Positions 13,324 through 14,577 of a stretch of 62,562 bases of DNA are shown piece after piece (positions within the stretch are counted from its first letter, which is position 1; each line of letters opens with the position of its first letter). The DNA is from a virus. The stretch is taken from the UHGV virus genome UHGV-0106067, one strand, 5' to 3'. Made by a program: the position numbers and the translations under genes. The notes beneath the pieces were generated by a model. That model searched no databases, had not been told where the DNA came from, and saw only the letters and a list, made by a program, of their open reading frames with translations.

Positions 13324-13471
13324 ATACGTTCAGACAGAATTTTTGGCCTGTTGTTAACTAGTAACCTGAAGAGACGTTTGGGTGATGTTTGGGTGATTTT
13401 AGTTGTGATTAACGAAAACTATGGTGCAACATCTTATAGTAAATTGTTAATATAACAAGGTATTGTATCAA

Positions 13472-14374
13472 ATGAGCCAAAATCTTGATTCAACACTAGA
13501 AACATACATCTCTTGGCAGTTAGAGCAATTTAAGGATAAATTTTTCCCAAACTGTGACGTCATTGCGTACTACGGTGGCATCTTTCCATGGTCAAAAGAA
13601 GTTTACCAGCCAAAACTTGAAGCTATTGGTGAGATGGCTAACAGTCGTACCAATAAATTTCTTGTTATTATACTCAATACAAACGGTGGTTCTGTTGAGT
13701 CTGTAGAAAAAATGGTAGAAATTACAAGGCATTTCTACCAAGAGGTATATTTTATCATTCCAGACATGGCTATGTCGGCAGGTACAATATGGTGCATGTC
13801 TGGAGATAAAATTTACATGGACTATGCTTCTTCATTAGGACCTATTGATCCTCAAGTGCAATCGTCGGACGGTAAATGGGTTCCCGCTTTGGGATACCTT
13901 GATAAAGTTGAAGAAATGATTAATAAATCCAGAGAAGGAACCATTACCCAAGCTGAACTGATGATGCTTAGTCAGTTAGATCTGGCGCACTTGCGGAGAT
14001 ATGAGCAAGCCAGAGAACTATCAATAGACTTGCTTAAGAAATGGCTTGTGGAGTATAAATTTAGAGAGTGGACAGTTCATCAGGGTAACACAAAACGAGG
14101 AAAGCTAGTTACCAAGAGGGAAAAGGAAGCGAGGGCTAAAATGATCGCTACCGCTCTTAGTGACAACGGAAAGTGGCATTCTCACGGAAGAACGATAGGA
14201 ATAAACACTCTTATCAATGACTTAAGGATAAAAGTAGAAGACTTTACATACGATAAAGATTTTAGCATGGCGTTAAAAAATATACATAACGTCATTAATG
14301 AATACATGTATAAAACAAATCGACAGGTTCTTGTTCTGTCTTCTTTCCCTTTTCCAGAACAAAGTGAGTCATAA
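13472..14374 (+). CDS. ClpP/SppA-fold serine protease of the SDH (serine dehydrogenase proteinase, S49-like) type
   Basis: LNTNGGSVESVEKM and DMAMSAGTIWCMSGDKIYM match the Clp-fold nucleophile region. The segment looks AT-rich. Start taken at ATG 13472. Confidence 0.65.
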   Translation: MSQNLDSTLETYISWQLEQFKDKFFPNCDVIAYYGGIFPWSKEVYQPKLEAIGEMANSRTNKFLVIILNTNGGSVESVEKMVEITRHFYQEVYFIIPDMAMSAGTIWCMSGDKIYMDYASSLGPIDPQVQSSDGKWVPALGYLDKVEEMINKSREGTITQAELMMLSQLDLAHLRRYEQARELSIDLLKKWLVEYKFREWTVHQGNTKRGKLVTKREKEARAKMIATALSDNGKWHSHGRTIGINTLINDLRIKVEDFTYDKDFSMALKNIHNVINEYMYKTNRQVLVLSSFPFPEQSES

Positions 14375-14545
14375 ATGAACAAAGACAAATCCCTGACACA
14401 ACAAGTGGAAGAAATACTTAGCAAGCAAAAAGTTAGCGAGCAAGGAAAAATGATTCAATCATTAAAGAACAGGGGCTTGATCAACAAGCCTGTTTTTACT
14501 TTGGCTTATGGACCAGATATTACAACCTGCCAAATGCACCAATAA
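14375..14545 (+). CDS. 56-aa protein translationally coupled to the protease
   Basis: Hand translation: MNKDKSLTQQVEEILSKQKVSEQGKMIQSLKNRGLINKPVFTLAYGPDITTCQMHQ. The ATG directly abuts the protease stop codon (TAA-ATG). Below the track cutoff. Confidence 0.5.
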   Translation: MNKDKSLTQQVEEILSKQKVSEQGKMIQSLKNRGLINKPVFTLAYGPDITTCQMHQ

Positions 14546-14548
14546 CAA

Positions 14549-14577
14549 AACCCGGCCTTGGTGCCGGGTTTTGTTTG
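14549..14577 (+). terminator. Intrinsic terminator closing the protease cassette
   Basis: CCCGGC-cttggt-GCCGGG followed by TTTTGTTT. Confidence 0.8.

Follow-up and report, generated by a model that had tools for sequence, protein, structure and literature searches.

A mobile protease and small-protein cassette in the repressor-proximal slot of a 933W-like lambdoid phage, a candidate anti-phage module

Introduction

The interval between the cI and N genes of lambdoid phages is a recognised mosaic hotspot carrying rexAB or bstA, and its occupants are presumably transcribed from the repressor promoter (10.1101/2020.07.13.199331). In the window, by which we mean the whole 62,562-nucleotide stretch of DNA analysed here (UHGV virus genome UHGV-0106067), this slot holds a low-GC cassette of two genes, encoding an SDH-type ClpP-fold serine protease and, directly downstream, a protein of 56 aa. 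Like rexAB of lambda and bstA of Salmonella phage BTP1, the pair lies after the repressor gene and before the terminator preceding PL or N, in the same orientation, and like them it is dispensable for the phage and mosaically replaced among lambdoid phages, as seen from the empty site of a prophage of the same backbone (L002). Its chemistry is nonetheless unlike theirs, being that of a serine protease with a small partner, and neither Pfam nor PADLOC places either protein in a Rex or BstA family, a direct comparison with RexA, RexB and BstA not having been run. The locus is a new architecture occupying a known hotspot, and nothing on the pair or on its prophage position was found in PADLOC 2.0 or in the searchable literature.

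Among the described relatives of the protease, both SppA (family S49) and the NfeD/STOPP protease 1510-N of Pyrococcus horikoshii rely on a Ser-Lys dyad, SppA being a membrane-anchored protein that forms a dome-shaped oligomer and 1510-N having an SPFH/stomatin protein as its partner. 1510-N is the closest solved relative in sequence (E 2e-5, with the nucleophile serine aligned) and is a membrane protease by its PDB description, whereas both cassette proteins are predicted to be soluble, the catalytic candidates of the cassette protease are Ser, Asp and His, and its partner is a 56-aa protein without a Pfam domain; the NfeD1b_N model scores 29.3 bits on the protease and does not pass its cut-off of 40 bits. 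SppA, a periplasmic ClpP-class serine protease according to the matched viral entries, shows 15-18% identity to the cassette protease in Foldseek, and the peptide seen in its active site is its own C-terminus (title of PDB entry 4kwb) and not the product of a separate gene. The SDH-type proteins of Pfam family PF01972, including those of giant viruses, share with the cassette protease a score above the Pfam gathering threshold, the best viral structure match and the Ser...Asp...His order of conserved residues, but the subfamily of the cassette protease differs in having a C-terminal region of its own with the motif WHSHGR and an obligatory small partner encoded downstream. Experimental work on any PF01972 SDH member was not found in the searchable literature; the protease family is named by its fold alone, and the partner family has neither a Pfam entry nor a name beyond phrog_28875.

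We tentatively suggest that the pair may be a previously undescribed two-gene anti-phage system of the abortive infection or exclusion type, widespread across phyla, in which an SDH-type protease would be silenced by a small pseudo-substrate protein encoded downstream, and which temperate phages of Enterobacterales would repeatedly have captured into the rexAB slot.

Results and Discussion

The protease

An earlier reading of the DNA from its letters alone, in the following called the original prediction, described a Clp-fold SDH-type protease of 300 aa with the motifs TNGGSVE and MAMSAGT, and this description holds: both motifs are present, the nucleophile motif is conserved, and PF01972 (SDH_protease, formerly DUF114) is passed with 44.2 bits, the gathering score being 31.3 and the match covering residues 62-199 only. 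The fold is that of ClpP, SppA and 1510-N (ClpP/crotonase). The protease fails the NCBIfam equivalog NF047768 (Clp_like_SDH), reaching 57 bits against a cut-off of 250, and judged by its sequence it is a distinct subfamily within PF01972; its PHROG assignment, phrog_11747, is annotated as 'unknown function'. The subfamily is a sizeable one with about 4,450 homologue clusters at 90% identity, and the 344 representatives at 50% identity with E<=1e-30 are nearly all single-domain proteins of 280-300 aa. Over 102 sequences S102 of the AMSAGT motif, G72-G73, D144, S237, H238 and R240 are invariant, while D126, D170 and H236 are conserved in at least 90%, and the family-specific C-terminal extension of about 120 residues holds the W235-H-S-H238-G-R240 motif. 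We read G72-G73 as putative oxyanion-hole glycines, and the intact catalytic candidates in their Ser...Asp...His order suggest that the protein is an active enzyme. The protease lacks hydrophobic segments and is therefore expected to be cytoplasmic and soluble; signal peptides and transmembrane segments are not found in it or in the 56-aa protein.

Since its fold is common to the S49/ClpP-type head proteases and weak matches to phrog_53 (E 4.7e-7, over 75 residues only) and NF045542 occur, the protease might be thought of as a prohead maturation protease displaced from the structural module. This is however hardly conceivable, and the original prediction likewise held it to be unrelated to head maturation. 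The NF045542 match amounts to 24.9 bits against a cut-off of 120, and the gene belongs to the immunity region, between cI and the toxin-antitoxin (TA) genes hicBA, about 40 kb from the N4-gp56-type capsid gene. Sister phages of the same backbone do without it, and it is present at non-phage chromosomal loci in many phyla. In structure, too, the best viral matches are 'serine dehydrogenase proteinases' of Mimiviridae-like giant viruses, with TM-scores relative to the query of 0.43-0.59, whereas the phage S49/ClpP head proteases give poorer ones of about 0.25-0.41.

A tblastn search of 50,697 phage records retrieved just two distant paralogues, 26-29% identical to the protease and both located outside head modules, namely at gp31-32 of Gordonia phage BeeGee (L101 3809-5537) and at p15-p16 of a Shewanella Mu-like phage (L102 3932-5441). 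Both are followed by a gene for a protein of about 185-210 aa instead of a small one, and the wider family may thus include another kind of partner architecture.

The 56-aa partner and conservation of the pair

The small open reading frame (ORF) downstream is a real coupled gene as originally predicted, the stop codon TAA of the protease (14372-14374) being followed at the very next base by the ATG of the partner. A pattern scan with one genome per species gave 434 loci. The best 80 were taken for analysis; they come from Gamma- and Betaproteobacteria, Bacteroidota, Acidobacteriota, Gemmatimonadota, Elusimicrobiota, Omnitrophota and others, and their proteases share 47-67% identity with the query. 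Conservation of the pair as a unit extends well past E. coli, since a small ORF on the same strand is found directly downstream in 82 of 82 protease loci, with a median gap of 11 nt, often overlapping the stop codon, and a median length of 67 aa. A hidden Markov model built from the small ORFs recognises 78 of the 82, and two of the four misses are artefacts of threshold or ORF calling, so that one partner family occurs in about 80 of the 82 loci; in the other two, from Haemophilus and Neisseria, the position is taken by a divergent ORF of 62 aa. No further conserved neighbour emerged when 1,032 neighbouring genes were clustered, and an intact protease gene lacking the small ORF downstream was not seen.

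At Haemophilus/Neisseria-type loci (L016 8870-9058, L017 1582-1770 and L109-L112) the 62-aa ORF overlaps the protease stop by 4 nt and is devoid of the LPxxDTIG motif, and these loci adjoin an IS1595 transposase gene.

The partner family has as its signature a helical N-terminal part, the motif [KR]xxY[ST][LIF]P..DT[IVL]G[KR] and then a clade-specific tail. The motif, in its general form KxxYxLPxxDTIG[KR], reads KPVFTLAYGPDIT in the partner of the window, the enterobacterial version being KPVFTLAYGPD. The AlphaFold2 (AF2) model of the partner consists of two short helices (residues 7-18 and 22-32) and has a predicted local distance difference test (pLDDT) score of 66 overall, while the conserved tail comes out as disordered when the partner is modelled alone (pLDDT about 50-70); this disordered tail is the best-conserved portion of the protein. 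In a profile search 73 stand-alone homologues with lengths of 51-105 aa were retrieved; every one is annotated as 'hypothetical', and there are no Pfam domains or fusions among them. The partner was also considered as a winged-helix regulator of the ArgR type, but this candidate was rejected, since the match is below threshold (16.8 against 27 bits, E 0.006) and the AF2 model shows no third, recognition helix.

Within E. coli the two genes are separable. The 56-aa gene and the terminator are present without the protease, of which just the last ~13 nt are left, in three genomes (e.g. L003 5014-5184), and in strain CP52E (L103 1783-3912) an IS3-family element truncates the 5' end of the protease gene while the small gene is intact. 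A small gene that stands alone or beside a disrupted protease is consistent with an antitoxin-like partner, thin as this evidence is with so small a sample. It also brings up the possibility that the pair is an addiction module of TA type, with the protease as toxin and the small protein as antitoxin, which stabilises the prophage or island instead of defending it against phages. The converse arrangement is indeed unseen, and the pair is a tightly coupled and mobile two-gene unit that adjoins hicBA in the window phage. We nonetheless find this distinctly unlikely, given that most type II TA systems have their genes in the opposite order, that a DNA-binding domain is not recognisable in the small protein, the ArgR-like match lying far below its cut-off, and that the asymmetry stems from tiny samples; furthermore, TA function and abortive infection are not mutually exclusive.

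A mobile insert in the immunity region

The cassette was predicted to be AT-rich and discrete, and in agreement with this its GC content is 0.385 over 13324-14593 as compared to 0.495 for the whole window. In prophage L002, which has the same backbone, the cI gene, the membrane-protein gene and their terminator are joined straight to the hicB-proximal sequence, leaving an empty site. The insert can therefore be placed at about 13325-14593, since L002 lacks that stretch and its alignment resumes at about 14594. Together with the copies in other phages, the empty site identifies the cassette as a horizontally moved unit downstream of cI. Twelve other E. coli genomes contain the segment 13384-14581 of the window at about 92% identity beside a different cI, and the homology to these copies begins at 13384/13387. 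In the lambda-like prophage L001 cI is followed, after a spacer of 72 nt, by the protease gene, the small gene and the terminator, with N coming about 445 nt later, and the protease is 97% identical to that of the window while the adjacent cI proteins are just 50% identical. The cassette thus moves independently of repressor type.

The proposal that two intrinsic terminators bound the cassette stands for one of them only. The right terminator moves with the cassette, being kept in L001 and in L003, whereas the left one belongs to the cI operon and is unchanged at the empty site of L002. The left hairpin was called by the scanner on the minus strand only, and on the plus strand UUUAUUU follows the stem. 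The right hairpin was without a scanner call for technical reasons, and it is bidirectional, since an A-run precedes the stem and a T-run follows it. It corresponds to t_imm of lambda and in the window serves the convergent hicBA genes as well.

The leader of the cassette contains the tandem 11-bp repeat GTTTGGGTGAT, present in two copies exactly as originally described. It is part of a remnant, GAGACGTTTGGGTGA, that codes for E-T-F-G-stop and of which the last 11 bases are duplicated. The cI gene of L001 ends in GAGACGTTTGGGTAA (GAG ACG TTT GGG TAA, which is E-T-F-G-stop), in single copy and as a true cI end, whereas the cI gene of the window itself ends 337 nt upstream of the remnant with a different sequence. 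Since the repeat matches the cI end of L001 and not the phage's own, it is a recombination scar, a lambda-type cI 3' end that was imported with the cassette, and the homology to the 92%-identical copies starts inside it. An operator, iteron or other regulatory element was considered for the repeat and rejected, the repeat being a duplicated cI 3' end.

In L001 no hairpin is seen by eye in the 72 nt that separate the protease gene from cI, no scan having been made, and cotranscription from PRM/PRE is therefore the simplest reading; it is likely, as far as the spacer can tell, that the cassette is cotranscribed with cI in this prophage.

Recurrent position and possible function

The pair is found directly downstream of the repressor gene in five enterobacterial prophage backbones, which are the 933W-like phage of the window, the lambda-like L001, a Rac-like Klebsiella prophage, an Enterobacter prophage and a Proteus prophage, the last with the order cI, pair, N. 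The original prediction had compared the site to the immunity-region hotspot in which lambdoid phages carry exclusion genes such as rexAB, and L001 bears this out, since its pair fills the gap between cI and N, i.e. the position of rexA-rexB-t_imm in lambda.

Such a position immediately past the repressor could also suggest a protease directed against the repressor that controls prophage induction, as ImmA does by cleaving ImmR in ICEBs1, all the more since the Klebsiella repressor has no S24 autocleavage domain. This is very improbable, however. Proteases that are 97% identical are found beside cI proteins of 50% identity, the pair also adjoins an unrelated repressor in Klebsiella, close relatives of the window phage (L002) do without the cassette, and four of the five prophage repressors have an S24 domain of their own, that of L001 by its 'LexA family' annotation. 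In addition, the commonest upstream family in the cross-phylum census, HTH_3, accounts for just 7 of 130 genes, and the pair also occurs at loci outside prophages.

In other phyla the contexts are mixed. Some loci adjoin helix-turn-helix (HTH), S24, M78, Gp49 or restriction-modification (R-M) genes or insertion sequence (IS) elements, and the two nearest genes per side match 194 PADLOC families (130 genes) and 187 (135 genes) at E<=1e-10, among them Type I/III R-M, Type IIG, Shango SngB/C, BrxH, dGTPase and PDC-S04/05/18/23, as opposed to 17 families for 135 control genes lying 5 kb or more away in the same loci. 'Protein of unknown function DUF114' is furthermore one of the potential targets named in a survey of Porphyromonas CRISPR spacers (PMC5570325), consistent with such genes riding mobile elements in Bacteroidota. 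Because the pair recurs in the rexAB slot and its neighbours exceed distal genes in PADLOC matches, the defence reading gains indirect support.

In mechanistic terms we envisage a self-contained mobile two-gene operon that would sit in a lysogenically transcribed slot just past the repressor gene. The small protein, of about 55-90 aa and predicted to be a two-helix hairpin with an extended disordered tail, would be made by translational coupling, and its tail would occupy the substrate groove of the protease as a cognate substrate or pseudo-substrate, thereby restraining the enzyme in an antitoxin-like manner. Infection by another phage might then perturb this restraint and release the protease, which would cut a conserved target of host or phage, with the outcome that the superinfecting phage is excluded or its infection aborted, in parallel to rexAB and bstA in the same slot. 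A tail in the groove would fit two precedents, since 1510-N is specific for a stomatin homolog by its PDB description and crystals of SppA show the protein's own C-termini bound in the active sites. That the protease is expressed in the lysogen and that the disordered tail of the partner acts on it as a pseudo-substrate or regulator, for the purpose of phage exclusion, we consider a reasonable possibility, if one that falls short of probable.

Several observations weigh against a defence function. Neither the protease nor the 56-aa protein matches PADLOC-DB 2.0 at E<=1, and the searchable literature likewise holds no counterpart, which agrees with the original prediction, to which no described defence system built on this protease family was known. 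The cassette is rare, being present in 17 of 5426 complete E. coli genomes, and a megablast search of the 50,697 phage records gave no match and hence no close homologue. The PADLOC counts of the neighbours are counts of redundant models and not of proteins and come without a formal statistic, and the surplus therefore shows a direction only. The order of protease and then small gene is, as noted above, opposite to that of most type II TA pairs with their antitoxins. Expression in the window is uncertain as well, since the left hairpin divides the cassette from the cI operon and just a weak promoter-like site (8/12) lies upstream; it would have to come from read-through of that hairpin or from this site. 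Finally, at many of the loci in other phyla the neighbours are housekeeping genes, such as those for SAICAR synthase, ferritin, polyphosphate kinase and MM-CoA mutase.

This last point leads to the alternative that protease and partner are a general protease-substrate pair of host physiology, with a role in stress response, in proteostasis or in the processing of the partner to yield an active peptide, and that the prophage copy is a fitness moron outside phage-phage conflict. The pairing of 1510-N with the stomatin homolog, its operon partner, is a non-defence one, and the specificity of 1510-N for this protein provides a parallel. Many of the loci outside Enterobacterales are not only surrounded by housekeeping genes but also stable across strains, as in Shewanella, where the pair lies between the genes for SAICAR synthase and an OmpA-like protein; the protease is strongly conserved, the E. 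coli protein being about 50% identical to those of Bacteroidota or Acidobacteria, and the conserved motif of the small proteins followed by a clade-specific C-terminal tail is reminiscent of a propeptide. On the other hand, the distribution is patchy, the GC content is low and the cassette moves between different prophages, the repressor-proximal slot recurs, adjacent genes exceed distal ones in PADLOC families, and peptide secretion is not evident, since both proteins lack signal peptides and transmembrane segments. On balance we regard a physiological role of this kind as somewhat unlikely.

Should the pair prove to be an anti-phage system, it would bring a new effector chemistry, that of a ClpP-fold protease with a small regulator encoded in trans, into prophage-borne immunity, it would give a first function to a sizeable family so far annotated by its fold, and it would add another occupant of the cI-N hotspot to be set beside RexAB and BstA. 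Even if it does not serve defence, the strict coupling of protease and partner across phyla would constitute a new two-component proteolytic module.

Layout of the phage genome

The features of the cassette and its surroundings are collected in Table 1. The window of 62.5 kb holds the complete genome, in circularly permuted form, of an E. coli lambdoid phage of the 933W/Sp5 type. A prophage located at tRNA-Arg in strain UCPROB-001 is 99-100% identical to it over most of the window and 92.5-93.6% identical over 28.8-46.8 kb. Portal, probable scaffold and N4-gp56-type major capsid genes lie at about 53-58 kb, where a head protease is unannotated.

Table 1. Features of the cassette and the surrounding immunity region (positions in the window)
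Feature	Position	Strand	Remarks
cro	12022-12261	minus	divergent from cI
cI	12321-13034	plus	HTH_3 + Peptidase_S24
53-aa 'transmembrane anchored protein'	about 13131-13292	plus	downstream of cI; phrog_14503, moron category
Left hairpin	13297-13316		7 pairs, GC-rich stem, -10.8 kcal/mol; terminator of upstream cI/membrane-protein operon
Cassette leader	13325-13471	plus	cI-end remnant, 11-bp duplication, weak promoter-like site, Shine-Dalgarno
cI-end remnant	13371-13385		E-T-F-G-stop
Tandem 11-bp repeat	13376-13397		two copies
Promoter-like site	13412-13440		ACGAAA-17-TATAGT; promoter scan
Shine-Dalgarno	13457-13460		AAGG
SDH-type ClpP-fold serine protease	13463/13472-14374	plus	300 aa from ATG 13472
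56-aa partner protein	14375-14545	plus	phrog_28875, function unknown
Right hairpin	14544-14575		perfect 13-bp stem, 6-nt loop, -23.2 kcal/mol
Right junction of insert vs empty site	14576-14593		from L002 alignment
hicBA pair	14662-15257	minus	convergent with cassette; HicB 14662-15006, HicA 15003-15257
hicBA promoter	15315-15287		TTGACA-17-TATAAT
Best PL candidate	15967-15995		TTGACT-17-TATATT; promoter scan
isrK-like small RNA	16002-16077		above Rfam gathering score
P1/P7-type C4 antisense RNA	16102-16189		above Rfam gathering score
Rha-family gene	16244-16891		opens early-left genes

The 53-aa protein encoded between cI and the left hairpin is probably a membrane peptide expressed in the lysogen; it has no match in PADLOC-DB 2.0 at E<=1, and its gene is absent from L001 and L003. 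The hicBA genes on the other side have a promoter of perfect sigma-70 consensus and are a separate moron of the same hotspot, since relatives with the empty site carry them too.

No N gene is annotated in the window phage. A search for PL by way of operator repeats was negative, in that the 15-mers found between cro and cI do not recur in 13-17 kb and a search with 12-mers stayed at chance level. The best candidate comes from the promoter scan. The isrK-like and C4 RNAs sit between this promoter-like site and the Rha gene in DNA that is otherwise non-coding. As a whole, the stretch 15967-16891 looks like a secondary immunity module of the immI type (c4/ant-like) heading the early-left operon.

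Accessory genes are found elsewhere in the phage as well. The slot between Q and the lysis genes (about 2700-6960), which is the stx slot in Stx phages, contains a Type I R-M hsdM/hsdS pair together with a hok/sok locus (Rfam sok, 6786-6960) and the small RNA STnc100 (2809-3025), and a TA pair of the HigA/RelE-ParE type lies among the early-left accessory genes at about 24050-24630 (L004 31047-31630). With hicBA, the higBA-like pair and hok/sok, this one phage genome carries at least three TA loci.

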